A stretch of DNA of 64,000 nucleotides, from assembly GCA_035461085.1 (NCBI GenBank), contig DATHVW010000104.1, forward strand, positions 6,018 to 70,017, read 5' to 3'. This stretch comes from Longimicrobiales bacterium (lineage in GTDB: Bacteria; Gemmatimonadota; Gemmatimonadetes; Longimicrobiales; RSA9). Below are positions 44,868 through 58,765 of this stretch, piece after piece. Below the pieces are notes generated by a model. That model had not been told where the DNA came from. It saw only the letters and a program-made list of their open reading frames with translations, and did no database searches. The position numbers and the translations under genes are program-made. Position 1 is the first letter of the stretch, and every line of letters begins with the position of its first letter.

Positions 44868-45620
44868 TCAGCGCGGCGGGTTACGCTCCCACGAGCCGTA
44901 CATCGGATTAGGCAGGAGGAACCACGTACGACCGAAGTTATCGTACGCGCCCGGGGTGGCGCGGATCTGCTGTGTCTGGTCGGGGAAGTCCTGGATGTTG
45001 TCGCCGATGTACATGACGACCTCGAGCGGCGGCAGGTCTGCGCCCGTAGTTCCTTCGCGCACGGCGCGGAACCGGCCGTTCTTTCCACTCTCGCCGGCGG
45101 CCTGACAGAGAACGACATCGACGATGATCGTGAGCTGGCGCAGGTTGCTGCGCGTCTCGTCGCACACGATGTCGTCGCGATTCGTCACGATGGCCACGCG
45201 GCCGCCGAGCTCGCGCACGGTGCGAACGAAAGCCGCCGCGCCCGGGAGCGAATCGGCGGTGCCCTCCCGCACCCAGTCGTTCCACGTCTCCGGATCGAAG
45301 CGGGCGCCGCGCTCGACCAGCCGGCGCTGATACTCGGAGTTGTCGAGCACCGTCTCGTCGGCGTCGAGAATGACCGCCCAGCTTCCGCGCGTGCGATCGG
45401 CCGCGATGTCGCGCACGCGGTCTGCAGCCGTGCGATAGGTCTGCACAAAGATGCCGCGATGCTCCGCCGCCGTGCGGGCCCAGTGCACGTCGTTCGCACG
45501 CACGGCCGCCGGTGCCGGAGCCGTGGCCGCAGGAACGGACGCGCAGCCTGCGAGCAGCACGGCGGCGCAGGCGAGAACGACACGCCGAATGCCTGTGCGC
45601 GATCGTGCGACGGGCGTCAT
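44868..45620 (-). CDS. Class C acid phosphatase / 5'-nucleotidase, lipoprotein e(P4) family (HAD)
   Basis: Lipobox LLAGC, DDDD-family motif ILDADETVLDNS, VTNR, GDNIQDF. The start overlaps the speA stop (ATGA). Confidence 0.7.
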   Translation of the reverse strand: MTPVARSRTGIRRVVLACAAVLLAGCASVPAATAPAPAAVRANDVHWARTAAEHRGIFVQTYRTAADRVRDIAADRTRGSWAVILDADETVLDNSEYQRRLVERGARFDPETWNDWVREGTADSLPGAAAFVRTVRELGGRVAIVTNRDDIVCDETRSNLRQLTIIVDVVLCQAAGESGKNGRFRAVREGTTGADLPPLEVVMYIGDNIQDFPDQTQQIRATPGAYDNFGRTWFLLPNPMYGSWERNPPR

Positions 45621-47512
45621 GAGCCCTCACCCTCCAGGTACGTATAGCCGTTCAGCCCGGCGATGTAGTCCGCAATGAAGGCGTTGGCCTCGATGCGCGC
45701 GAGGCCGGTGGCGTTCTGAACCTTGCGCCGGAACGTGGTGATCAGGTCCTGCGCATTGAACTGCACGTAGTTCAACACCTCCGTGATCGTATCGCCGTGG
45801 ACCAGGTCCTCGATCTCGTATCCCGAGTCCGTCAGCTTGATGTGCACGGCGTTCGTGTCGCCGAACAGGTTGTGCAGGTCTCCGAGGATCTCCTGATACG
45901 CGCCGGTGAGGAAGATCCCGAGCACGTACGGCTCCTCGCCGCGCAGCGGATGCAGCTCGAGGTTGGGCTTCGGGCGGCGCCAGCCGACGAACCGGTCGAT
46001 CTTGCCATCGGAGTCGCACGTCACATCCTGCAGCGTACCGCGACGGGTCGGCTCCTCGTTGAGACGGTGCACGGGCATGATCGGGAAGAGCTGGTCGATC
46101 GCCCACGAATCCGGCAGCGACTGGAACAGCGAGAAGTTGCAGAAGTAGCGGTCGGTCAGGTTCGCGTTTACGTCGGGCAGGATGTCGCCGTACTCCTCCT
46201 CGTTGTCGCCCGCAAGCTGCGCGATCCGGTTCATGAGCGCGACCTGAAGCCGCTCGGCGACAGCGCGTTCGCGCAGGGAGAGCACGCCGCTGTGAAAATG
46301 AGACTGTGCCTGCTCCTTTGCGAACAGCGTGTCGTGGTAGACCTCGCGCAGGCTCCGGTCATCGATGTCATTGAGCGCGGCGAAGAGATCATGGACGAGC
46401 GGGTGCGCGTCGTCCGGCACCTCGGCGGGAGCATCTGCGACCTGCGTCTCGATGTCGATGACGTTGAGCAGCAGCAGTGCATGGTGCGCGGTGAGCGCGC
46501 GCCCGGACTCCGAAATAATGTGAGGCATGGGCAGCTCGGCCTCGCGACACGCCTCGGCGAGTGAGTATACGATGTCGTTCGCATATTCCTGCACCGAGTA
46601 GTTGACGGACGCCGCCGCCGTCGAGCGCGTGCCCTCGTAATCGACGCCCAGGCCGCCGCCCACATCCACATACTCGATGCGCACGCCCAGCTGCTGCATC
46701 TCGACGTAGTAGCGCGACACCTCGGTCATCGCCGCCTTGATGTTCCGGATGTCCGGGATCTGCGAGCCGATGTGGAAATGGATCATCTTCAGGATGTCCG
46801 TGCGGTCCACCGACTGCAGCTTGTCCACCACACGCATGAGCTGTGCGGCATTCAGCCCGAACTTGCTCTTCTCGCCGGCAGTCTCCGACCAGCGACCCGC
46901 GCCCGTCGTGGACAGCTTGATGCGCACACCGGCGGTCGGCACTACGTCCATCTCGTCCGCGACCTTCAGCAGCGTGTCCACCTCGCCGATCTTCTCCAGC
47001 ACGATGAGCACGGTGTGGCCCAGCTTCTGGCCCATGAGCGCCAGCCGGATGTACTCCTCGTCCTTGTAGCCGTTGCACACGATCATGTGATCGGCGCGCT
47101 CGGTCAGCGCGAGCACGGCCTGCAGCTCCGGCTTGCTGCCGACTTCCAGACCCACATTGTACTTGCGCCCGAACGCGACGATCTCCTCCACGACGTGCCG
47201 CTGCTGATTCACCTTGATCGGATAGACCGTGGTGTAATCGCCGGTATAGTCGAAGTCGCGGATGGCGGTGCGGAACCGCTCCGTCAGCATCTCGATGCGT
47301 GTGCGCAGGATGTCGGAGAACCGGAGCAGCAGCGGGAGGCCCACGCCCTGTGCCTCCAGGTCCATGGCTATTTCGTAGAGGTCGAGGCCGCGGTCCGGCG
47401 CCTTGGTCGGGTGCACGGTGACGTGGCCGAGATCATTGATGTCGAAATAGCCGATCCCCCACCCCTCGATGTTGTAGAGGTCACGGCTGTCGTCGGTGGT
47501 CCAGCTCATCAT
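45617..47512 (-). CDS. speA: Biosynthetic arginine decarboxylase
   Basis: Full-length SpeA-type sequence (WTTDDSRDLYNIEGWGIGYF..., PIKVNQQ, GLEVGSKPEL, GGGLGVDY). About 631 aa from MMSWTT. Confidence 0.9.
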   Translation of the reverse strand: MMSWTTDDSRDLYNIEGWGIGYFDINDLGHVTVHPTKAPDRGLDLYEIAMDLEAQGVGLPLLLRFSDILRTRIEMLTERFRTAIRDFDYTGDYTTVYPIKVNQQRHVVEEIVAFGRKYNVGLEVGSKPELQAVLALTERADHMIVCNGYKDEEYIRLALMGQKLGHTVLIVLEKIGEVDTLLKVADEMDVVPTAGVRIKLSTTGAGRWSETAGEKSKFGLNAAQLMRVVDKLQSVDRTDILKMIHFHIGSQIPDIRNIKAAMTEVSRYYVEMQQLGVRIEYVDVGGGLGVDYEGTRSTAAASVNYSVQEYANDIVYSLAEACREAELPMPHIISESGRALTAHHALLLLNVIDIETQVADAPAEVPDDAHPLVHDLFAALNDIDDRSLREVYHDTLFAKEQAQSHFHSGVLSLRERAVAERLQVALMNRIAQLAGDNEEEYGDILPDVNANLTDRYFCNFSLFQSLPDSWAIDQLFPIMPVHRLNEEPTRRGTLQDVTCDSDGKIDRFVGWRRPKPNLELHPLRGEEPYVLGIFLTGAYQEILGDLHNLFGDTNAVHIKLTDSGYEIEDLVHGDTITEVLNYVQFNAQDLITTFRRKVQNATGLARIEANAFIADYIAGLNGYTYLEGEGS

Positions 47513-47701
47513 CCGGTCCGGCTGAGGTTCGCTGTCAGTGCACTCGCCGGCGGGCGACCGCGCCCTCTGGCATCGCGCGAATTGTAGCAGGTCCGCACGT
47601 GTGCGAAAGGGCGGGTCGCGCATCCGGCCGGACGCCAGCGGGACCGGCGTGCCGCACGGACCCGGGCCGCCGCCCCGCCACTGTCGCCTGCGTGCGTCGA
47701 G

Positions 47702-48745
47702 TCACCGCATGGTCGCCAGCTCGATGTTGCTGATGTGGCCGCCGTACTCCCGGTGGATCTGCACCTTCCGCTCGACCATCTCGATCACGGGCGCCGCGAA
47801 ATCTACCTTCTGCAGGCGCCCGGCAATGTTCAGCCCGCCCGTGCTGATGCAGTTGATCTCCACGATGCGGTCCGCGACGATGTCCAGGCCGGCAAAGAAG
47901 ATTCCGTCGCGTTTCAGCTTCGGGCCCACGATCGCTGCCAGCTCCAGCATCCGGTCCGTCACGCGGCCGCGGGTGCCCTTGCCGCCGGCCGTCATGTTCG
48001 ATCGGAAGTCTTCACCCTGCGCCACGCGCCTCAGGGCCGCATACTTCCCGTCGACCATGAGCGGTTCGCCGTTGACCAGGAAGAAACGCGTGTCGGAGCG
48101 GTCGCCGGGGAGGAATTCCTGCGCCATGATGTAGCCGCCTCGCTGGATCGTCTCCACCATCTGCTTCAGGTTCGTCAGGTCCTTCTCGACCAGGAACACA
48201 TCGGCGCCGCCGTATCCGTTCAGCGGCTTCATGACGATCTTGCGCCCGCACTCCTCGTGGAACCGGCGGATCTCTTCCACGTCGCGCGTGACGATCGTCC
48301 GGGGTCTGACGGATTCCGGAAAATGCTGGAAGTACAGCTTGTCGATGGCGTAGGCGAGCGTATCGGGGTGGTTGAGCACGATGACGCCGCGTGCCATGGC
48401 CAGGCGGCCGAAGAGCACGCCCGCCTGCTGGGCCCACGCGCGGTCGTTCTCCACTTCCTCCGACGGATTGTACCGCAGCCAGAACACGTCCATGTCATCC
48501 GTCGTGATCCGCTCGCGCGGCGCGTCCCTGGCCTGGAGTGCTGCGAGGAAGCTCTCCTTCGTGCGCGCGTTCGCCGGTGCAACGTGTGCCAGGCCGCCAA
48601 TCCGGCCGTCCTCGAGGTATGTGAGCTGGTCGATGCCGATCACGTGCACGGTGTGGCCGAGCTTCGCGGCTGCATGGCACAATATGGTCGTGGTGGCGGG
48701 GGGAACCTCCGTCGCCACGTCGTTCACCAGAAAGGTTATCCTCAT
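47702..48745 (-). CDS. Glutathione-synthetase-like ATP-grasp ligase (GshB fold, substrate unknown)
   Basis: Aligns by eye with E. coli GshB landmarks: MKPLNGYGGADVF, GDRSDTRFFLVNGEP, GLDIVADRIVEINCIS. The start overlaps the upstream stop (ATGA). Confidence 0.7.
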   Translation of the reverse strand: MRITFLVNDVATEVPPATTTILCHAAAKLGHTVHVIGIDQLTYLEDGRIGGLAHVAPANARTKESFLAALQARDAPRERITTDDMDVFWLRYNPSEEVENDRAWAQQAGVLFGRLAMARGVIVLNHPDTLAYAIDKLYFQHFPESVRPRTIVTRDVEEIRRFHEECGRKIVMKPLNGYGGADVFLVEKDLTNLKQMVETIQRGGYIMAQEFLPGDRSDTRFFLVNGEPLMVDGKYAALRRVAQGEDFRSNMTAGGKGTRGRVTDRMLELAAIVGPKLKRDGIFFAGLDIVADRIVEINCISTGGLNIAGRLQKVDFAAPVIEMVERKVQIHREYGGHISNIELATMR

Positions 48746-50598
48746 TCGCTGTCGCTGATCATCTGTGTCAGGGTGAGCCCATCGCGCAGCGCATCCAGGC
48801 GGTGCGCCGTGTCCGGCTGTTCGAACAGGCGCGGCAGCAGTGCCGGCGCCTGGAGGTAGTCCCGCGCGCGCAGCTCCTCGACGATCGGGACGTGCTTTGC
48901 TGCGATCTTGCCCACGTAGAGCGGCTCGATGGCGCCGCCGGCGCGTATGTACTCCACGAGGCGGAGCAGCCCGCGCAGGTAGATGAGATCACGCGTGAAG
49001 CCGCCGCTCGCGTGAACGCGCTCGGTCACATCGAATGCAGTGCCGGCCGGCAGGCCGTGATCCTGTGTGAGGATGCGGAACGTGTCGATGAAGCCGGCGC
49101 CCTGTTCCACCGAATGGGCCGCCACGACGCGTGCGGCGAGCACGCGCATGCGTGATGCGTCGAGGCCATCGGCGAGGTACTCGGCGAGCACCGCGAGTCC
49201 TTCCTGGAGCTCGTCGTATCCCGCCAGGCCGTTGTACAGCTGTCGGAGCGGCTGCGCACGGCCGTTGTAGTACGTCAGCACGTGCGTGCCGACCTCGTGG
49301 TGCAGCAGCGGCAGCGCGCGCTCCGGTCGCAGCGCGAGCGCTTCGCCGATCAGCAGGTTGCCCTGCGAAACCATGAGTCCGACCAGGTCGGGGCGGATCT
49401 GTACTTCAGCGGCGAGATCGGGATATGACGCACGATAGTACTCCAGCTCCGTGCGCGCGGCCGCGGCGAACTCCTGCGCGGACACGTACGTCTTCGCGCG
49501 TCTGCGGACTGGCGGCGGTACGTCACCGAGCACATCACGCGCGACGTTCAGCAGCATGTCATCGACCGCGCCGTACAGGCGCATGCTCGCGAACCGGAAG
49601 CCCTCCGTGTTGCGCTCCGCGATGAGCGTGATCTGGCGATCGAGCTCGTCGCGCTTGTCACGCAGCAGGAACGCCATCGCCGGGTCGGCAACAGGCTCGA
49701 GATCCACGTCGAACAGCTGCCGTTTGAGCGAGTCGGGATCGACCGGGAGCAGCCGGTAGCGGAACTGGGGCGCGCGGCTGAACTGGCTGTCACGGAATGC
49801 TGCCCACGCTTCCCCGATGTTGACGGGCGACACGAGAAGCAGGAGCTGGTAGGACGACTCGATGTCGGCGAGAGCCCGGTCCGCGTCGGCCACCTCGCGT
49901 CCGAACCGGCGCGGCCCGACCGCGCGGTAGCTCTCGAATCCGGCACTGGTCTGCACGCGCGCAAAGTCGAATGCGGTCTGGCGCAGCACACCGGAGAGCA
50001 GCTGACGCAGCCGGCGCAGGAACACGGGATACACGGTGCCCGTTTCCGCGTCGCGGAAGATGGGTGGAACCTCGAGGCCGACGAGGAGACAACCGATGTC
50101 CCAGCACTCCTGCGTGGTGAGGAGCGGGTCGAGATCCGGCGGATGTCGTGCGTCCGTCTGTCGTACCCGCACCGTCGTGCGGACGTCCGGATCCGTCATT
50201 TCGCGCAGGCCGCGACACAGTGCGTCCACGGTCCCCGCTGCAGCGCCCGTCGGCGCGTGCACGACGAACTCCGTGCTGTCCGCAGGACCGGACCACAGCT
50301 CCAGGATCATGAACGAATCGAGCTCGCGCGTCGCGGCGGCGGCGAGTGCGGCTACGACGTCGTGCGTCTCGTCCACAGCTTCGCCCAGCGCGACCAGATA
50401 CGACGCCTCGCCCAGTACCAGGCGGTGCGTGCCGGGATCCTCGCGCTCGGGGGGCTGGCGATAGACGAAGAGGTAGGGCAGCTTGCGATCGAGGTTCAGC
50501 ACTCCGCCGTCCGGCAGGCGCTCGCGCACGTGCGCATCCGTGCGGAACCGTCGCAGGGTCCGTTCGATCAGCGCGCTGTCGACAATGGCAGAGCTCAT
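48742..50598 (-). CDS. DUF1704 / QEGLA-motif protein (tyrosine/phenylalanine carboxypeptidase-domain family)
   Basis: Contains the family-defining QEGLA (YDELQEGLAVLAEY) and HEVGTH (HExxxH). Start at MSSAIVDS (ATG 50598). Confidence 0.7.
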   Translation of the reverse strand: MSSAIVDSALIERTLRRFRTDAHVRERLPDGGVLNLDRKLPYLFVYRQPPEREDPGTHRLVLGEASYLVALGEAVDETHDVVAALAAAATRELDSFMILELWSGPADSTEFVVHAPTGAAAGTVDALCRGLREMTDPDVRTTVRVRQTDARHPPDLDPLLTTQECWDIGCLLVGLEVPPIFRDAETGTVYPVFLRRLRQLLSGVLRQTAFDFARVQTSAGFESYRAVGPRRFGREVADADRALADIESSYQLLLLVSPVNIGEAWAAFRDSQFSRAPQFRYRLLPVDPDSLKRQLFDVDLEPVADPAMAFLLRDKRDELDRQITLIAERNTEGFRFASMRLYGAVDDMLLNVARDVLGDVPPPVRRRAKTYVSAQEFAAAARTELEYYRASYPDLAAEVQIRPDLVGLMVSQGNLLIGEALALRPERALPLLHHEVGTHVLTYYNGRAQPLRQLYNGLAGYDELQEGLAVLAEYLADGLDASRMRVLAARVVAAHSVEQGAGFIDTFRILTQDHGLPAGTAFDVTERVHASGGFTRDLIYLRGLLRLVEYIRAGGAIEPLYVGKIAAKHVPIVEELRARDYLQAPALLPRLFEQPDTAHRLDALRDGLTLTQMISDSE

Positions 50599-50663
50599 TT
50601 CGTTCCTGGTCTCGTAATCGTGCGAAATCATGTAGCAAGGTCGGGGCCGGAGGGAGGCTGTAC

Positions 50664-51845
50664 ATGACGTTCCCTGCACGGGTGGCGGGTCTGATCGCGG
50701 TGCTCTCCATCACTGCATGTGCCACGTCGGCGCGGCAGGCGGCGATTGCGCCGGTCGCGTTCGCCGATGCGGACAGTGTCGCGACCATGACGCTCGCACC
50801 CGGCGTGACGCACACGTTCGTGCGAGATGCGCGCGGGCCGTGGGCGATTCACGTGATCGAGGTCGATGCGCGCCGCTGTGAGCCGCTGCTGGAGGCGCGC
50901 AAGCCCGGCACTGCCCTGAGTGAACGGGCAACCACGTCCGCACTCACCGGCGACGCGCTCGCCGGCGTCAATGCCGACTTCTTCATGCTGCCGGGTGGAA
51001 CGCCGGTGGGCGCTCACGTCGCGGCCGGGGTGCCGCTCATCGGACCGGGCGACCGCCCCGTGTTCGCCATCACGGGCCCGGCACCCGCCGGGTGGAGGAT
51101 CGGCACTGCGCAGATCAGTGGACACGCGCGCGTGCGGGCGGACACTGCGGAGGTCGCGCAGGTGAACCGGAGCCCGCGCGCGACCTCCGCGTACCGCGTA
51201 CCGACCGATGGACTCACGCTCTTCACCAGCTGGATCGGTGACTCCGTTCCAGCTGACAGCGCCGCGCGCAGTGTGCTGCTGCGCGTGATCACGGGCGGCG
51301 CGTCGGGCGGCCAGGGTGTGGTGGTGGCGGCCGATTCGGCTGCAGCCGCGTCCGTCATCGGTACCGGCGCTGCGGTCCTGCTCGCCCGTGGAGGCACCCG
51401 CGAGTGGGCACGCCGGCGCACGGCGGGAGATACGGTCCATTGGACGATTCAGGTCACTGTCGGCCCGCCGGACGCCCGGGCGCCGGTCCGGGAAGCGGTC
51501 GGCGGGTTTCCGGTTCTGCTCCGTGACGGCGCGGCGGTCCTGGCCGAACAGACGGTCGGCGCCAGCTTCTCGACCGAGCGGCATCCGCGCACGGCGATCG
51601 GCTGGACGCCCGATGGCCGACTCCTGCTCGTGGTCGTGGACGGCCGGCAGCCGGAATGGAGCGCCGGCATGTCGCTCGACGAGATGACGTGGCTGTTCCG
51701 GAGCCTCGGCGCATCCGACGCGCTGAACCTCGATGGCGGCGGTTCGACCGCGATGGTCGTCGGCGGTACGGTCGTGAACCGGCCGTCGGACCGCGAGGGC
51801 GAACGTGCCGTCGGCAACGCCCTCGCGCTGACCGGCTGTCGCTGA
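50664..51845 (+). CDS. Phosphodiester glycosidase family lipoprotein (NAGPA/DUF2233 domain)
   Basis: Lipobox LSITAC, C-terminal motif ALNLDGGGSTAMVV, RHPRTAIGW. Confidence 0.6.
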   Translation: MTFPARVAGLIAVLSITACATSARQAAIAPVAFADADSVATMTLAPGVTHTFVRDARGPWAIHVIEVDARRCEPLLEARKPGTALSERATTSALTGDALAGVNADFFMLPGGTPVGAHVAAGVPLIGPGDRPVFAITGPAPAGWRIGTAQISGHARVRADTAEVAQVNRSPRATSAYRVPTDGLTLFTSWIGDSVPADSAARSVLLRVITGGASGGQGVVVAADSAAAASVIGTGAAVLLARGGTREWARRRTAGDTVHWTIQVTVGPPDARAPVREAVGGFPVLLRDGAAVLAEQTVGASFSTERHPRTAIGWTPDGRLLLVVVDGRQPEWSAGMSLDEMTWLFRSLGASDALNLDGGGSTAMVVGGTVVNRPSDREGERAVGNALALTGCR

Positions 51846-54036: not shown

Positions 54037-56967
54037 TCAGTTCTGGTCGGCGGTCGCGGCGGACCGCGTGCCCGCGCTCAGGTTGCCGTGATGCAGCAGT
54101 GCGTTGAAGACCAGCGCATAGGAGCCCAGGGTCTGGCTGCGCCAGAACGGATTGAAGCTGAACATGACGATGTGGCCGCTGCCGAGCGGGACATCGACCA
54201 GCGCGGGCGCATGCGCCAGCTCCGCGCCGTCGGTGAGGCCGCCGCTGATCAGGAGCTCCTTCGGCTCGCTCGCGAAACGGAGTACCGTGCGCGCCTGTGA
54301 GCCGGCCTGACTGCCGCCGCCGCCGAATCCCTGCTGCTCCTCTTCACCCTGCGTCCGCCGGAACTCGTCCACTGCCGCCCGGCCCATGTCGCGCGGCCGG
54401 CCCTGCACGATGTCCTGCTCGTCGATGCCGCCGCGACCGGAGCGGCGCTCCGTAGTGCTGCCATCGGGCGCATCGCCGGCGCGGGCGATGGCCGGGTTCC
54501 GCTGACCGTCCGCGAACACCGGCCCGCGATTGAAATAGACGCCGAGCGTCTCACCATAGCCGTACATGAGCGGGCTGGCCGCATCGGCGGTTGCCGTTCG
54601 GAACACGCCGCCCGGCGCCCACAGGTTGGGTGTGTCCGCCACGCGCACGCCGCCCGCCATGCCGAAGTGAATGGGCAGCATGCTGCTGTTCGTGATCGTG
54701 ACCAGAGTGCCGCCCTGTTCGACGAAGCGCTGCAGATTCAGCACACCCTGCAGCTCGAGTCCGCCGCGCATGTCGTCGGTCGAATCCTGCCGGCCGAGGT
54801 TGGGCGTGATGTCCGTCTTCTTCCACGGCATCGGGCTGTCGCCCGAGAGGCCGCTCACCACCTGGAGCGGGTCGTTGGACGACGGCCCGAACAGGATCAC
54901 ATCGTAGCGCTCGCGCAGGCGCGGATTATCGCGCGCTTCATGCACGGAGATGTAGTCGAACGGGATGCCGTACTGATCCAGCGCGAGCCGCATCCAGCCT
55001 TCCGTCTGCGTCGTCTGCCACGTGTGCATGACCGCGACGCGCGGCGTCGCGACAGCGTGAGTCGCAACCGCGGGCACGGTGCTCACACCGATGGCAGTGA
55101 ACCCGAACTCCTGCGCGGCATCACTCAGCAGCTGTGCAAGGTTGCCCGGGTTGCCGGACGTCGGGATGATGAACGTTCCCGCATTGAACGTGCGGCCGGC
55201 CGCATCGAACGCGGTCTGCGCCGCCTGCATGCGCAGGTTGCGATGACGGAACCGGAACGACGCGAGATTGTTGTCCGCGTTGTAATTGATGATGAATGCG
55301 CGCGCGCCGCCCGCGTTCTCGACCGCCCCGCCGGCCCGGACGCGTTCCGTCACGGCCTGCATGGGGGCGTCGAGGATCGCGACATCCTCCACGCGCACGG
55401 TCTCGGCATTGTAGAGCGGGCCGAACGTCCAGCCCGTGTCATCGTACGGCCGCGGGTCATCCGGATTGTAGTACTGCCTGTCGAGCATCATGTCGACGGC
55501 GCGCGAGAACGGCTGGTCCATGCGGACGACGTAGCTGCCGGCGCCGAACGTCTGCTCTCCGACCGTGGCCGGCGCCGTCGTGCGGTGCACCTCGGCGCCG
55601 TGGCGCTGGAGCAGATCGAGCAGCTGCGCCTGCTGGCCGGGTCGCGGATCGTCAGCCGGGAACACGTACGCTGCCGGGCCCTCGGCCCGCGCCTTCGCGA
55701 CGCTGCGCTGCGCCTTGAGGTAATAGTTGCTCAGGAACTCCTCACGGTTGTCCGCGACTTCGCGCAGCGCGATCAGCAGCGCACTCTGCTGCAGGTTCAC
55801 GTTGTTGCGGATGGACCAGACGGCCTGCGGCAGAGGCGTGCTCGGCCGGTGCCACTGGCGGTCGACATTGCCGTTCACGATGTAGTTCGAGGCGTCGCGC
55901 GAGCCCTGCGTCTCATAGAACCGGCCGATCGAGTTGCGCATGTTCGCGACCCAGAACATGTAATTCGGCGCCCAGCCGTCGTAGAAGTCGAACGTGTATA
56001 CGCCGGGCACGCCGTGCGCCGTCAGGTCCTTGACTTCCTTGAAGGCCAGCCGGTTCCACTCGCTGACGAGGATCGGGTCGATCCAGGCGTTGTACGGTCC
56101 GCGACCGGTCGACGTATAGAGGTACGTCGCCGACTCATGCAGGTCATGGAACACCGTCGGATTGTACTCGAGGAACGTCCGCACCACGTGCTCCGACAGC
56201 TTCAGCGACAGCGACATGCCGTCGCGGTTGTTGTCGTGTGCCACGTACTTCCCCCAGTACAGCGGCCGCGTGGGGTAGGTACCGTCCGGATCCTTGCGCG
56301 GCGCCATGTGGATGTCGACCACCTTCGCGCGGCCGTCCACTTCGATCACCGGTGTCACCAGCACGATCACATTGTCACGGATCGCACGGATGTGCTCCGA
56401 CTCATCGACCGCCAGCCGGTACACAAGCTCCATCAGCATTTCCGGGGAGCCGGTCTCCGGCGCGTGGATCGCGCCCGTCGCCCAGTAGATCGGCTTTGCC
56501 TGCGGTATGAAGCGTGCCGCTTCCTCCTCCGTCGTGCGCCGCGGATCACCGAGCCGCGCGAGCATGTCCTTGTAGGTGTCGAGCTGCGCGATGGTCTGCT
56601 CGTCCGAGATCGCGACGAGGATCATCTCGCGGCCCTCTTCGCTCTGTCCCATGCTGAACACACGCACGCGCGGCGACGCCGCGGCCACCGCCCGCATGTA
56701 TTCCGCAACGTCCTCCGGGTACGTGAGCTGCTCCGCCGCACCCGCGATATAGCCGTTCGCATCGAGCGGTGTCGGCACGGTGCTCGAGGCCGGCAGATGG
56801 TCGATCAGCGGTGTGAGGAAGAACGGTTCCGTGGTGAAGCGCCGGATCTGCGCCGTATACTCCTCGTCCACCGGCTGCTGCGCGAGCAGCACGTCCGCAC
56901 TCGCGCACAGAACTGCGCACAGTGCAACGACTGCACGCGCCGACCGGCCGAAGCGGCGGTTCAGCAT
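54037..56967 (-). CDS. Large secreted M14 family metallocarboxypeptidase
   Basis: Signal peptide MLNRRFGRSARAVVALCAVLCASA, HxxE zinc motif (GAIHAPETGSPE), and a long C-terminal extension. The track N-extension reads through repeat family 2 and is rejected. Confidence 0.7.
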   Translation of the reverse strand: MLNRRFGRSARAVVALCAVLCASADVLLAQQPVDEEYTAQIRRFTTEPFFLTPLIDHLPASSTVPTPLDANGYIAGAAEQLTYPEDVAEYMRAVAAASPRVRVFSMGQSEEGREMILVAISDEQTIAQLDTYKDMLARLGDPRRTTEEEAARFIPQAKPIYWATGAIHAPETGSPEMLMELVYRLAVDESEHIRAIRDNVIVLVTPVIEVDGRAKVVDIHMAPRKDPDGTYPTRPLYWGKYVAHDNNRDGMSLSLKLSEHVVRTFLEYNPTVFHDLHESATYLYTSTGRGPYNAWIDPILVSEWNRLAFKEVKDLTAHGVPGVYTFDFYDGWAPNYMFWVANMRNSIGRFYETQGSRDASNYIVNGNVDRQWHRPSTPLPQAVWSIRNNVNLQQSALLIALREVADNREEFLSNYYLKAQRSVAKARAEGPAAYVFPADDPRPGQQAQLLDLLQRHGAEVHRTTAPATVGEQTFGAGSYVVRMDQPFSRAVDMMLDRQYYNPDDPRPYDDTGWTFGPLYNAETVRVEDVAILDAPMQAVTERVRAGGAVENAGGARAFIINYNADNNLASFRFRHRNLRMQAAQTAFDAAGRTFNAGTFIIPTSGNPGNLAQLLSDAAQEFGFTAIGVSTVPAVATHAVATPRVAVMHTWQTTQTEGWMRLALDQYGIPFDYISVHEARDNPRLRERYDVILFGPSSNDPLQVVSGLSGDSPMPWKKTDITPNLGRQDSTDDMRGGLELQGVLNLQRFVEQGGTLVTITNSSMLPIHFGMAGGVRVADTPNLWAPGGVFRTATADAASPLMYGYGETLGVYFNRGPVFADGQRNPAIARAGDAPDGSTTERRSGRGGIDEQDIVQGRPRDMGRAAVDEFRRTQGEEEQQGFGGGGSQAGSQARTVLRFASEPKELLISGGLTDGAELAHAPALVDVPLGSGHIVMFSFNPFWRSQTLGSYALVFNALLHHGNLSAGTRSAATADQN

Positions 56968-57043
56968 GGATGTCTCCTTGGTTCCGGATCTGTGGGATGC
57001 CCTACGATACGGCTGAAGTGCGCGCGCGAGCAAGCGGTCGGGG

Positions 57044-57143
57044 GATTCGGGAGCGGGATCGTGTTCGGGAGCGGGAACTGCAAACAAACTGCTTGCAGTC
57101 CCGAACACGCTACCGAACACGATCCCGCTCCCGCTCCCGATTC
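57044..57143. repeat. Palindromic extragenic element, family 2, copy 2
   Basis: Perfect 21-bp stem CGGGAGCGGGATCGTGTTCGG (57048-57068) / CCGAACACGATCCCGCTCCCG (57113-57133), with an inner GGGAaCTGCAA/TTGCAGTCCC hairpin. Confidence 0.85.
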
Positions 57144-57145
57144 CG

Positions 57146-58765
57146 TTATCTGTTCCCCAGGTATCGGCGCGCCGCGACCAGCTCCGGTCGCGTCGGCTCA
57201 CCCTCGCTCATCAGCTCGACGATCTCGCGGTAACGCGCCGTGGCGGTCGCCGTGTCACCGGCCTGCTCGGCCGCGCGGGCGGCGCCGAAGAGAGCCCGGG
57301 CGCGTCGCGGCTCGCGCTCCAGCGTGCGGTTGTACGCGGCGAGGGCATCCGCGGGCCGGCCCAGCTCGAGCAGGAGGTCGCCCTCGAGCTCGCGCGCGGG
57401 GAGCAGGGGACCGGGCGTCACCGGGTGCTTCTCGACGGTCTCCTCGAGGTCGGCGGCCTGGCGTGCAAGCTGGACGGCCGTGGCGTCGTCGCCGGAGGCA
57501 TGTGCGACCCACGCCGCGGCCGCGAGCCGCTGTGCCTCCACGACGGTGGACCAGTATGCGTCGCCGGCGGTGTCGAGCTGAGCCTTCAGACGGGCCAGCT
57601 CATCGACTTCACTCCGGGCCGTTGCGGCGTTTCCGGTGCGCGCCGCGCCGATGGCGCGCGCGAAGCGCGTGACGGCCTGGACGAACGGCGTCGCGCCGAC
57701 GGGTAGCGTCAGCTCGGCTGCGTCCGACCACGCGCCGCGCTCCAGCGCGAAGCGCGCGGGCATGGCCGTGAAGTTATAGCCGAGCAGGCCGCCGTAATAG
57801 CTGTCGTCGATCTGCACGACGCGCTCGACGACGCGGCGCGCATCGCCGTCGCGGCCCTGCTGGAGGTACGCGTACACCATGTAGTCGAGCGGATGCACGG
57901 CCGCATTGGAGTCGGGTTCCGCGCGCGCGGAGCGCATGTTCGTCTCGATCGACTCATCCCAGTATCCGAGCCGCGTGAAGATGTGGGATGGCATGTGCAG
58001 GGCGTGCGGGGCGGCGGGTGCGATGTCGGCGTATGCGAACGCCGCCTTTGTTGCGCGCTCCGCCAGCCGCGGCGAGTCATACGCGTGAATCAGATAGTGC
58101 GCGAGGCCCGGGTGTTCCGGATGCTCGTCGAAGAGCGGCTGCATGATGGCCGCGCCGCGCAGCTGCGCAGCAAACGTGCTGTCCGAGGGTGATGCGTTGG
58201 CGACGACCGTACGCGCATGGAAGATCGCTGCCTCCATGTCCTCCGGATGCGCATCGTGCAACGCCGCGAGCGCCTGCTCGAGCGATGCCATGCGCGCCAT
58301 GTGGTCGCGCGTGCGGTAATCCGCGTAATAGGCAGCCACCGCGTCGATATACATCTGCTCACGGTGGGACGCGGCCCTCCCCAGCTCGAGCGCGCGGTCC
58401 GCTGCCGCGGCTCCCTCCTCCAGGGCAGCGGCCGACGGCGTCGCACGGGTCATGGGATTCCCCAGCATTGTCATCGCAACTCCCCAGTGCGCCATGGCGC
58501 ACCCGGGCTCGGCCTCGATGATCGATGTGAACGCCGCCCGCGCCGATTCGAACCAGAACGAGTGGAGCATTGCGACCGCCCTCTCGAACTGCGGCCGCAC
58601 GGCATCCGAACATGAGACGGGGAATTCCACCTTGCCGAGCTGCGCCGAGTCGCCCGCCGGATGGGGGTGATCCTGCGCTCGTGCGGGCAGGACAAGCATT
58701 GCTGCAGCCGTAGCAGTAACGAGTGTTGCGCGCGCGATGAGCGCGCCGTGGATGAGGCGTCGCAT
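57146..58765 (-). CDS. Secreted TPR-like helical repeat protein
   Basis: Signal peptide MRRLIHGALIARATLVTATAAAMLVLPARA and all-helical Ala/Leu-rich repeats. Function unknown. Confidence 0.45.
   Translation of the reverse strand: MRRLIHGALIARATLVTATAAAMLVLPARAQDHPHPAGDSAQLGKVEFPVSCSDAVRPQFERAVAMLHSFWFESARAAFTSIIEAEPGCAMAHWGVAMTMLGNPMTRATPSAAALEEGAAAADRALELGRAASHREQMYIDAVAAYYADYRTRDHMARMASLEQALAALHDAHPEDMEAAIFHARTVVANASPSDSTFAAQLRGAAIMQPLFDEHPEHPGLAHYLIHAYDSPRLAERATKAAFAYADIAPAAPHALHMPSHIFTRLGYWDESIETNMRSARAEPDSNAAVHPLDYMVYAYLQQGRDGDARRVVERVVQIDDSYYGGLLGYNFTAMPARFALERGAWSDAAELTLPVGATPFVQAVTRFARAIGAARTGNAATARSEVDELARLKAQLDTAGDAYWSTVVEAQRLAAAAWVAHASGDDATAVQLARQAADLEETVEKHPVTPGPLLPARELEGDLLLELGRPADALAAYNRTLEREPRRARALFGAARAAEQAGDTATATARYREIVELMSEGEPTRPELVAARRYLGNR

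Follow-up and report, generated by a model that had tools for sequence, protein, structure and literature searches.

In a 64,000-nucleotide stretch of a Longimicrobiales genome from the phylum Gemmatimonadota (GenBank assembly GCA_035461085.1, contig DATHVW010000104.1, positions 6,018 to 70,017; below referred to as the window), two overlapping genes encode a zinc peptidase of the family that includes the human MATCAP proteins and an ATP-grasp ligase that is a paralog of the glutathione synthetase GshB. The pairing of these two genes is conserved across bacteria far beyond chance and is specific to a long form of the peptidase and to ligases of the PRK12458 type. From the linkage and the expected chemistry of the two families, we tentatively propose that a small acidic peptide-type substrate shared by both enzymes is lengthened at its C-terminus by the ligase and shortened there by the peptidase.

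The peptidase and ligase genes form a conserved pair

A preliminary description of the window, made from its letters and a list of open reading frames (ORFs), had placed a QEGLA-type gene first and a ligase gene second, joined by an ATGA overlap, and had read the motifs QEGLA and HEVGTH in the upstream protein. The ORFs and the sequence bear out the gene order, the overlap and both motifs (Table 1), and profile hidden Markov model searches assign PF08014 to the peptidase and PF02955 together with PF02951 to the ligase. The start of the peptidase was taken to be the ATG at 50598, 5' of which stands AGGAAC, because the frame from the alternative GTG at 50679 would overlap the divergent lipoprotein gene starting near 50664, and because the relatives of the peptidase, which are 613-626 amino acids (aa) long, align from the first residues on. 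The genome from which the window derives is an assembly of 306 contigs and is 90% complete.

Table 1. Coordinates of the gene pair, its domains and motifs, and the neighbouring speA gene (window positions)
Feature	Position	Strand	Basis
Long-form DUF1704/MATCAP-family zinc peptidase gene	48742..50598	-	ORF, 618 aa; PF08014, AlphaFold (AF2) model, MATCAP fold match
GshB-paralog ATP-grasp ligase gene, PRK12458 type	47702..48745	-	ORF, 347 aa; PF02955 and PF02951
ATGA overlap of peptidase stop and ligase start	48742..48745	-	Read from sequence
N-terminal N-formylglutamate amidohydrolase (FGase)-like domain of the peptidase, residues ~17-225, probably without catalytic activity	49924..50550	-	Structure match and hhalign
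MATCAP-type catalytic domain, residues 267-598	48805..49800	-	PF08014 envelope
HEVGTH zinc-binding/catalytic motif, H434-H439	49282..49299	-	Translation, alignment
QEGLA motif, Q465-A469	49192..49206	-	Translation, alignment
speA, biosynthetic arginine decarboxylase; neighbour, not part of the conserved module	45617..47512	-	NF003763, 869.9 bits

Across a sample of 301 Gemmatimonadota genomes, PF08014 and an NF009110-type ligase (E ≤ 1e-60) are both present in the same six genomes and neither is present in the other 295, and the ligase lies directly downstream of the peptidase in all six carriers. When the unpublished genome G097 is left out, the carriers number 5 of 300 and the adjacency is found in 4 of 4 of the carriers besides the window genome. 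When one genome was scanned for each species, at least 587 stretches were found to encode relatives of the peptidase, a count of several hundred species that is a minimum, and the best 80 of these loci were examined. They stem from more than 12 phyla, amongst them Gemmatimonadota, Bacteroidota, Chloroflexota, Planctomycetota, Acidobacteriota, Myxococcota and Calditrichota, and further comprise Campylobacterota, Actinomycetota, Ignavibacteria, Gammaproteobacteria, a cyanobacterial relative and one Bathyarchaeota bin. Using tblastn, the window ligase finds a match in 79 of the 80 loci, with none in L054, and in 73 of them, as read from the tblastn table, the ligase gene immediately follows the peptidase gene on the same strand, less than 300 bp away. 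It lies elsewhere in the locus or on the opposite strand in L028, L036, L040 and L050, is separated from the peptidase by a 905-bp gap in L065 and is located upstream in L079; two or three tandem copies of the ligase are present in five loci.

The partners of this association were delimited in a sample of 151 genomes of a gammaproteobacterial order around genome G301, where PF08014 gives a total of 25 matches in 21 genomes and where nine genomes hold 11 PRK12458-type ligase genes (E ≤ 1e-80). All 11 ligases lie within about 2 kb of all 11 long-form PF08014 matches (frames of 641-693 aa), with the ligase preceding the peptidase in nine pairs and the order of the window in two, and the 14 short-form matches (frames of 180-573 aa) are not accompanied by a PRK12458-type ligase at this threshold. 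Since every long form pairs with the ligase and the short forms do not, the association is specific to the long-form peptidase and the PRK12458-type ligase, and the pairing is far beyond chance. The conserved linkage, which the preliminary description had left to a co-occurrence check, is thus found in the Gemmatimonadota, in the 80 related loci and in the gammaproteobacterial pairs.

In genome G301 itself, about 2.3 kb separate a short-form MATCAP gene (394-aa frame) from an ATP-grasp gene of distant kinship, which reaches 75 bits on the GshB model (G301:C20:302034-305979), and short-form peptidases may be paired with another ligase family.

The peptidase combines a MATCAP-type catalytic half with an FGase-like domain

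The catalytic half of the peptidase (residues 267-598) matches the MATCAP model PF08014 with 280.6 bits against a gathering cut-off of 27 (E = 2.4e-83). On the QEGLA model TIGR02421, which spans residues 240-601 only, it reaches 305.6 bits and stays under the curated cut-off of 338.65; the window peptidase is a long form, in which a domain has been added outside the span of this model. In an alignment of the window protein with 67 representatives (34-53% identity, 68 sequences), H434, E435, H439, Q465 and E466 are invariant, and so are E473, R483, R490, R527, D537, Y540 and K564. The HExxxH motif and the downstream Glu of EGLA that characterize gluzincins are both present and align to the site of human MATCAP, with E466 likely acting as the third zinc ligand. 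Judging from the alignment, the invariant basic residues may form a basic pocket that would suit an acidic substrate.

An AlphaFold (AF2) model built from the 68-sequence alignment (predicted local distance difference test score, pLDDT, 94.6; predicted template modelling score, pTM, 0.92) has as its top Foldseek matches in the PDB the human MATCAP structures 7z5g and 7z6s (E = 3.5e-9; template modelling score, TM, 0.66 on the target), and behind these come carboxypeptidases of the DUF885 and M32 families. With plain phmmer, the peptidase finds no PDB sequence at E ≤ 1, and MATCAP is reached only by the fold search and by a sequence profile, which matches 7z5g with E = 1.3e-11 and aligns HEvGTH with HEIGTH, QEGLA with EEGLA and KDavYLrG with KDQVYLDG. 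The kinship of the DUF1704 protein with the human tubulin peptidase, which the preliminary description had named, is therefore recovered by family model, profile and fold, and the active-site motifs HExxxH and EGLA are intact. The human enzymes TMCP1/2 (the MATCAPs) are described in PMC10499314 as removing C-terminal Tyr and Glu from acidic tails.

Residues 1-235 of the peptidase give no Pfam match even at E ≤ 10. Folded alone, the N-terminal domain is modelled with a pLDDT of 93.6, and its best structural match using VIA-align is the FGase chain 2q7s_B (Z 13.7, rmsd (root-mean-square deviation) 3.0 over 177 residues), which stands about 3 Z units above the next matches, namely a 2odf chain of uncertain family, M14 carboxypeptidases, cell-wall amidases and poly-gamma-glutamate hydrolases. 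Foldseek with the domain alone yields weak and mixed matches (TM about 0.4). Aligned by hhalign with a profile of the 41 FGase genes that flank the pair in related loci, the domain profile (71 sequences) scores a probability of 94.2% (E = 1.1e-7), and the invariant D134-L-H136 of the FGases is placed opposite E100-x-W102, so that a Trp stands in the position of the histidine. The 71 sequences have no invariant His at all; strict conservation is limited to P41 and E100, with R47 coming close to it. The domain thus shares the fold of FGase (PF05013; PDB 2Q7S) and is remotely homologous to the pair-flanking FGase genes, but it lacks both the PF05013 match and the conserved metal-binding histidine that define membership in that family. 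We regard it as a diverged homolog of FGase in which catalysis has probably been lost and which is unlikely to be an enzyme.

The ligase is a GshB paralog distinct from glutathione synthetase

Both GshB domains are recognized in the ligase (PF02955, E = 1.1e-46; PF02951, E = 2.6e-07), and a phmmer search of the PDB retrieves E. coli GshB (1GSA, E = 6.9e-33), which has the same domain architecture. Thirteen residues are invariant in 52 ligase orthologs (K136, K173, G179, G180, Q209, D218, R220, R240, R248, N250, D288, E296 and N298), and all of them are common to canonical GshB. They include the ATP- and Mg-binding Lys, Asp, Glu and Asn (K136, K173, D288, E296, N298) and the glycine-rich loop (G179-G180) typical of ATP-grasp enzymes. 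The glutathione-synthetase landmarks pointed out in the preliminary description are thus retained, and the catalytic apparatus is, to judge by these residues, intact.

In contrast to this shared core, the ligase falls short of both GshB equivalog cut-offs (179.9 bits against 299.05 for TIGR01380 and 193.2 against 272 for NF003573). It aligns over its full length (1-346) with NF009110, the PRK12458 model, where it reaches 379.4 bits and remains under the cut-off of 408, which the five other Gemmatimonadota carriers pass with 434-461 bits; by context, the window ligase is a diverged PRK12458 member. Its likeness to other ATP-grasp families is lower, with 70.4 bits on the RimK family model TIGR00768 (cut-off 143.4), 26.5 bits on the ribosomal protein S6 ligase equivalog and 71.9 bits on the MptN model (cut-off 350). 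The ligase family is set apart by N8, E13 and H31 of its N-terminal domain, by an insert that includes W104-A105, by Y334 and N340 in an extension of the C-terminus, and by the sequence SPGG, where three well-aligned canonical GshB sequences read SPTC.

Five carrier genomes, four of them proteobacterial, were searched for canonical GshB, and all four proteobacterial carriers encode a separate canonical GshB (434-454 bits), with their pair-linked ligases scoring 146-237 bits. The absence of a gshA near the pair, noted in the preliminary description, extends to the whole 90%-complete window genome as far as the PF04262 type is concerned. Two GCS2 matches exist, both on other contigs; one is a YbdK-family carboxylate-amine ligase (TIGR02050, 298 bits) and not a GshA equivalog, and the other is an 886-aa RimK-like/GCS2 fusion. 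A glutamate-cysteine ligase partner for a GshB was accordingly not found in the window genome. The fusion protein (L004:73-2730, contig C60) has a RimK/LysX-like ATP-grasp domain at residues ~87-314 and a carboxylate-amine ligase domain of the GCS2/YbdK type at ~477-864 and thus holds two amide-bond ligases within one chain.

Exchangeable hydrolases and, in some loci, ion transporters lie near the pair

The surroundings of the pair in the 80 loci were surveyed by clustering of ORFs (minimum 90 aa) and by Pfam searches on cluster representatives and on same-strand immediate neighbours, the neighbour scan covering 106 ORFs with one 2618-aa ORF left out. An FGase gene is present in 52 of the 80 loci, with direct adjacency verified by Pfam in 49, and a gene of the AstE/AspA family in 14, where a position directly downstream was verified in 11. 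The two never occur together, so that 66 loci carry one or the other; Pfam credits both families with liberating Glu or Asp from small N-acylated compounds. Neither gene is present in 14 loci, of which four are short contigs and three are the Gemmatimonadota loci nearest to the window (L005, L007 and L008), and amongst the other Gemmatimonadota carriers, G153 and G267 have an FGase gene upstream and G050 an M14 carboxypeptidase gene downstream. The statement in the preliminary description that an FGase gene is often found with the pair therefore holds for the related loci, but not for the window, which has none, nor for its genome, in which PF05013 finds no match. The window is a minimal two-gene form common to its nearest relatives, and this form shows that the core that cannot be dispensed with consists of the ligase and the fused peptidase.

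Further neighbours recur in smaller numbers. Genes for Mg2+ transporters (CorA, MgtE, CNNM) are located within 8 kb in 15 of the 80 loci, and when MscS-type channels and TrkH are counted as well, an ion channel or transporter is found in 20. Sigma-54 activators occur in eight. In a transcriptome study of Photobacterium damselae (PMC10308900), a gene annotated as 'QEGLA motif protein' is up 27.5-fold at 1% NaCl, amongst the most induced genes, and the next locus tag, annotated as GshB, is up 38.4-fold.

In two Flavobacteriaceae loci (L042:3804-5495 and L084:5927-7711), an asparagine-synthase-like glutamine-dependent amidotransferase is encoded directly upstream of the peptidase and an AstE/AspA-family protein downstream of the ligase. 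The Gemmatimonadota genomes G050 and G237, which belong to one genus, both encode a GNAT acetyltransferase some kb upstream of the pair (L097:5685-6272 and L098:5659-6222); these neighbours may hint at an N-acetylated substrate.

A possible make-and-break unit for a C-terminal amide bond

Because the ligase would form the kind of bond that the peptidase would break, and because their genes are locked together, we favour a substrate shared by the two. The pair would then constitute a self-contained unit that makes and breaks one amide bond at the C-terminal end of this substrate, which might be a small acidic compound of the cytoplasm with Glu or Asp as its last residue, for instance a dipeptide, an oligopeptide or a molecule resembling an N-acyl amino acid. 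The ligase would act like GshB, using ATP to phosphorylate the terminal carboxylate of the acceptor and joining to it the amino group of the incoming amino acid, and the MATCAP-type gluzincin (H434, E435, H439, E466) would cleave the C-terminal residue off again, with the fused FGase-like domain serving for binding or as a scaffold. Translational coupling would keep the two enzymes at a fixed ratio, and the product pool could be adjusted upon ionic or osmotic change. We prefer a small acidic peptide over a protein tail or a one-way pathway because FGase and AstE/AspA genes are swapped around the pair and because the ligase occurs in tandem; tandem paralogs are as expected for the stepwise assembly of a short peptide. 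One relative carries an M14 carboxypeptidase in the position of the third gene.

Several points weigh against this proposal. If a ligase and a hydrolase that act on one and the same bond were expressed together without regulation, ATP would be wasted, and no regulator is visible in the window. The third hydrolase, which is the best support for a small substrate, is not encoded in the window. None of the five other ligases in the phylum is as diverged as that of the window (379 against 434-461 bits), whose lower NF009110 score is due to five departures from positions that are at least 90% conserved in the family (S178Y, G217S, K293R, L294I and P302T). The counts of ion transporters are raw numbers without a background control, taken from related genomes that are not independent of each other, and the Photobacterium genes are named by annotation and may or may not be of the long form and the PRK12458 subtype. 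A link to polyamines through the neighbouring speA gene was considered and rejected: none of the 80 related loci holds a relative of SpeA, and the adjacency is therefore taken as a local coincidence. Polyamine genes are nonetheless co-induced in the Photobacterium data (PMC10308900). A literature search, in which subscription journals were mostly not covered, found no functional study of a bacterial DUF1704, QEGLA or PRK12458 protein.

The same chemistry and the same linkage would also serve the editing of a protein tail, whereby a specific protein encoded elsewhere would gain one residue or a few at its C-terminus through the ligase and lose them through the MATCAP-like peptidase, much as RimK/RimB act on ribosomal protein S6 or TTL/MATCAP on tubulin. 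The only characterized MATCAP-family enzymes act on protein tails (PMC10499314). That bacteria can oppose a peptidase to a ligase is known from RimK and RimB, and the related Rlo peptidases are of importance under hypo-osmotic stress (PMC12239564); the large two-domain peptidase, modelled with a pLDDT of 94.6, could moreover offer a surface for docking a protein. However, no target gene is conserved beside the pair, since the clusters of the 80 loci comprise enzymes, transporters and regulators only, and the operon in the window contains no credible small ORF. FGase and AstE/AspA are small-molecule amidases by family description, and tandem ligase paralogs are a better match to stepwise peptide synthesis, which makes a protein target appear somewhat unlikely to us. 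A LysW-like zinc-ribbon neighbour in L010 was examined as a carrier or target and set aside, being a single case without an acidic C-terminal tail.

Compared with a small substrate that is extended and trimmed in turn, a one-way pathway would have the ligase and the hydrolase or hydrolases act on different bonds of one route, for example in building a peptide or a cofactor tail (a glutamyl tail of the F420, folate or methanopterin type) whose maturation or proofreading falls to a hydrolase, or in salvage. The weak likeness of the ligase to MptN and to the RimK family agrees with this, as does the exchange of several hydrolase types around a constant ligase-peptidase core, and the co-induction in Photobacterium (PMC10308900) is easier to reconcile with a pathway than with opposing activities. 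Yet both family scores are far below their cut-offs, cofactor-biosynthesis genes do not recur in the 80 loci, and a carboxypeptidase undoes exactly the type of bond that a GshB-type ligase makes; we regard such a pathway as unlikely. Least of all do we expect an ordinary glutathione synthetase with the peptidase as a mere neighbour, an explanation that we judge very improbable. It can draw on GshB being the best Pfam and PDB match, on the ligase being the only GshB-like gene found in the window genome and on the YbdK-family GCS2 ligase elsewhere in that genome. Against it stand the missed equivalog cut-offs, the lack of a PF04262 gshA next to a GCS2 match of the YbdK family, the separate canonical GshB in the proteobacterial carriers, the family-specific SPGG, W104-A105 insert and C-terminal extension, and the near-absolute linkage to the peptidase across phyla; in the 295 remaining genomes of the phylum, moreover, no GshB-like match is found at E ≤ 1e-60. 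The name 'glutathione synthetase' given to the pair-linked ligase by automatic annotation would accordingly be a widespread misannotation, correctable once the substrate is found.

Tubulin tyrosine ligase (TTL) has the glutathione-synthetase fold. In the tubulin tail cycle, ligases of the TTL/TTLL type are opposed by MATCAP1/2 (TMCP1/2, KIAA0895L/KIAA0895), and the peptidase halves of that cycle and of the bacterial pair both belong to PF08014, with HExxxH, EGLA and KDxxYLxG of human MATCAP aligning to the window peptidase. An ATP-grasp ligase is here proposed as the counterpart as well, and the known MATCAP substrates are acidic C-terminal tails (PMC10499314). The two systems differ in that the identity of human MATCAP to the window peptidase is 19% over the aligned fold, that the bacterial protein carries the extra FGase-like domain, and that the bacterial ligase is a GshB paralog rather than a member of the TTL family, encoded in an operon with the peptidase; tubulin is not expected as its substrate. 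RimK/RimB and RloABC of Pseudomonas likewise combine in operons an ATP-grasp alpha-L-glutamate ligase that extends C-termini with a co-transcribed trimming peptidase, and Rlo is linked to hypo-osmotic stress (PMC12239564), but their peptidase is a retropepsin-like aspartic protease whereas that of the window is a gluzincin, and the window ligase is well below the RimK and S6 ligase models.

More speculatively, and in a form we think doubtful, the pair could be a bacterial write/erase system for a C-terminal residue, on a protein tail or a dedicated acidic peptide, that tunes the balance of cations (Mg2+, K+, polyamine) or the osmotic balance, and could represent the prokaryotic counterpart of the tubulin tyrosination/glutamylation cycle, whose peptidase half may even have evolved from it. 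Identification of the substrate would give a first function to the bacterial relatives of MATCAP and would test whether bacteria in general make use of tail editing by a ligase and a carboxypeptidase, as it is known for ribosomal protein S6 and tubulin. The present analysis contributes the complete co-occurrence in the 301 genomes of the phylum, the specificity for the long form, the mutual exclusion of FGase and AstE/AspA genes as partners, the loss of a histidine from the fused domain and the minimal two-gene form.

Genomic surroundings of the pair in the window

The ligase gene is followed, after a gap of about 189 bp that contains a TACAAT-like hexamer, by speA. The frame listed for speA (45617..47623, minus strand) is probably over-extended, as the NCBIfam alignment begins at residue 36, and the start is probably M38 at 47512. 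A small ORF in the gap (47535..47705) is not credible, being Arg-rich and of high GC by hand translation and overlapping the over-extended speA frame. A scan of positions 47300-50900 for consensus promoters and terminators found nothing.

Next after speA lies a gene for an e(P4)-type acid phosphatase, and divergent from the pair on its upstream side are genes for a NAGPA-domain lipoprotein, a RecQ-family helicase and an Lrp/AsnC regulator. Relatives of the acid phosphatase and of the NAGPA protein, like those of SpeA, occur in none of the 80 related loci, and a RecQ match is found in five. A gene for a 1054-aa M14 carboxypeptidase (54037..57201, minus strand; PF00246, E = 3.4e-15) is located 3.4 kb from the pair with three opposite-strand genes in between and is probably unrelated to it; its translation has, judged by eye, a signal-like N-terminus.

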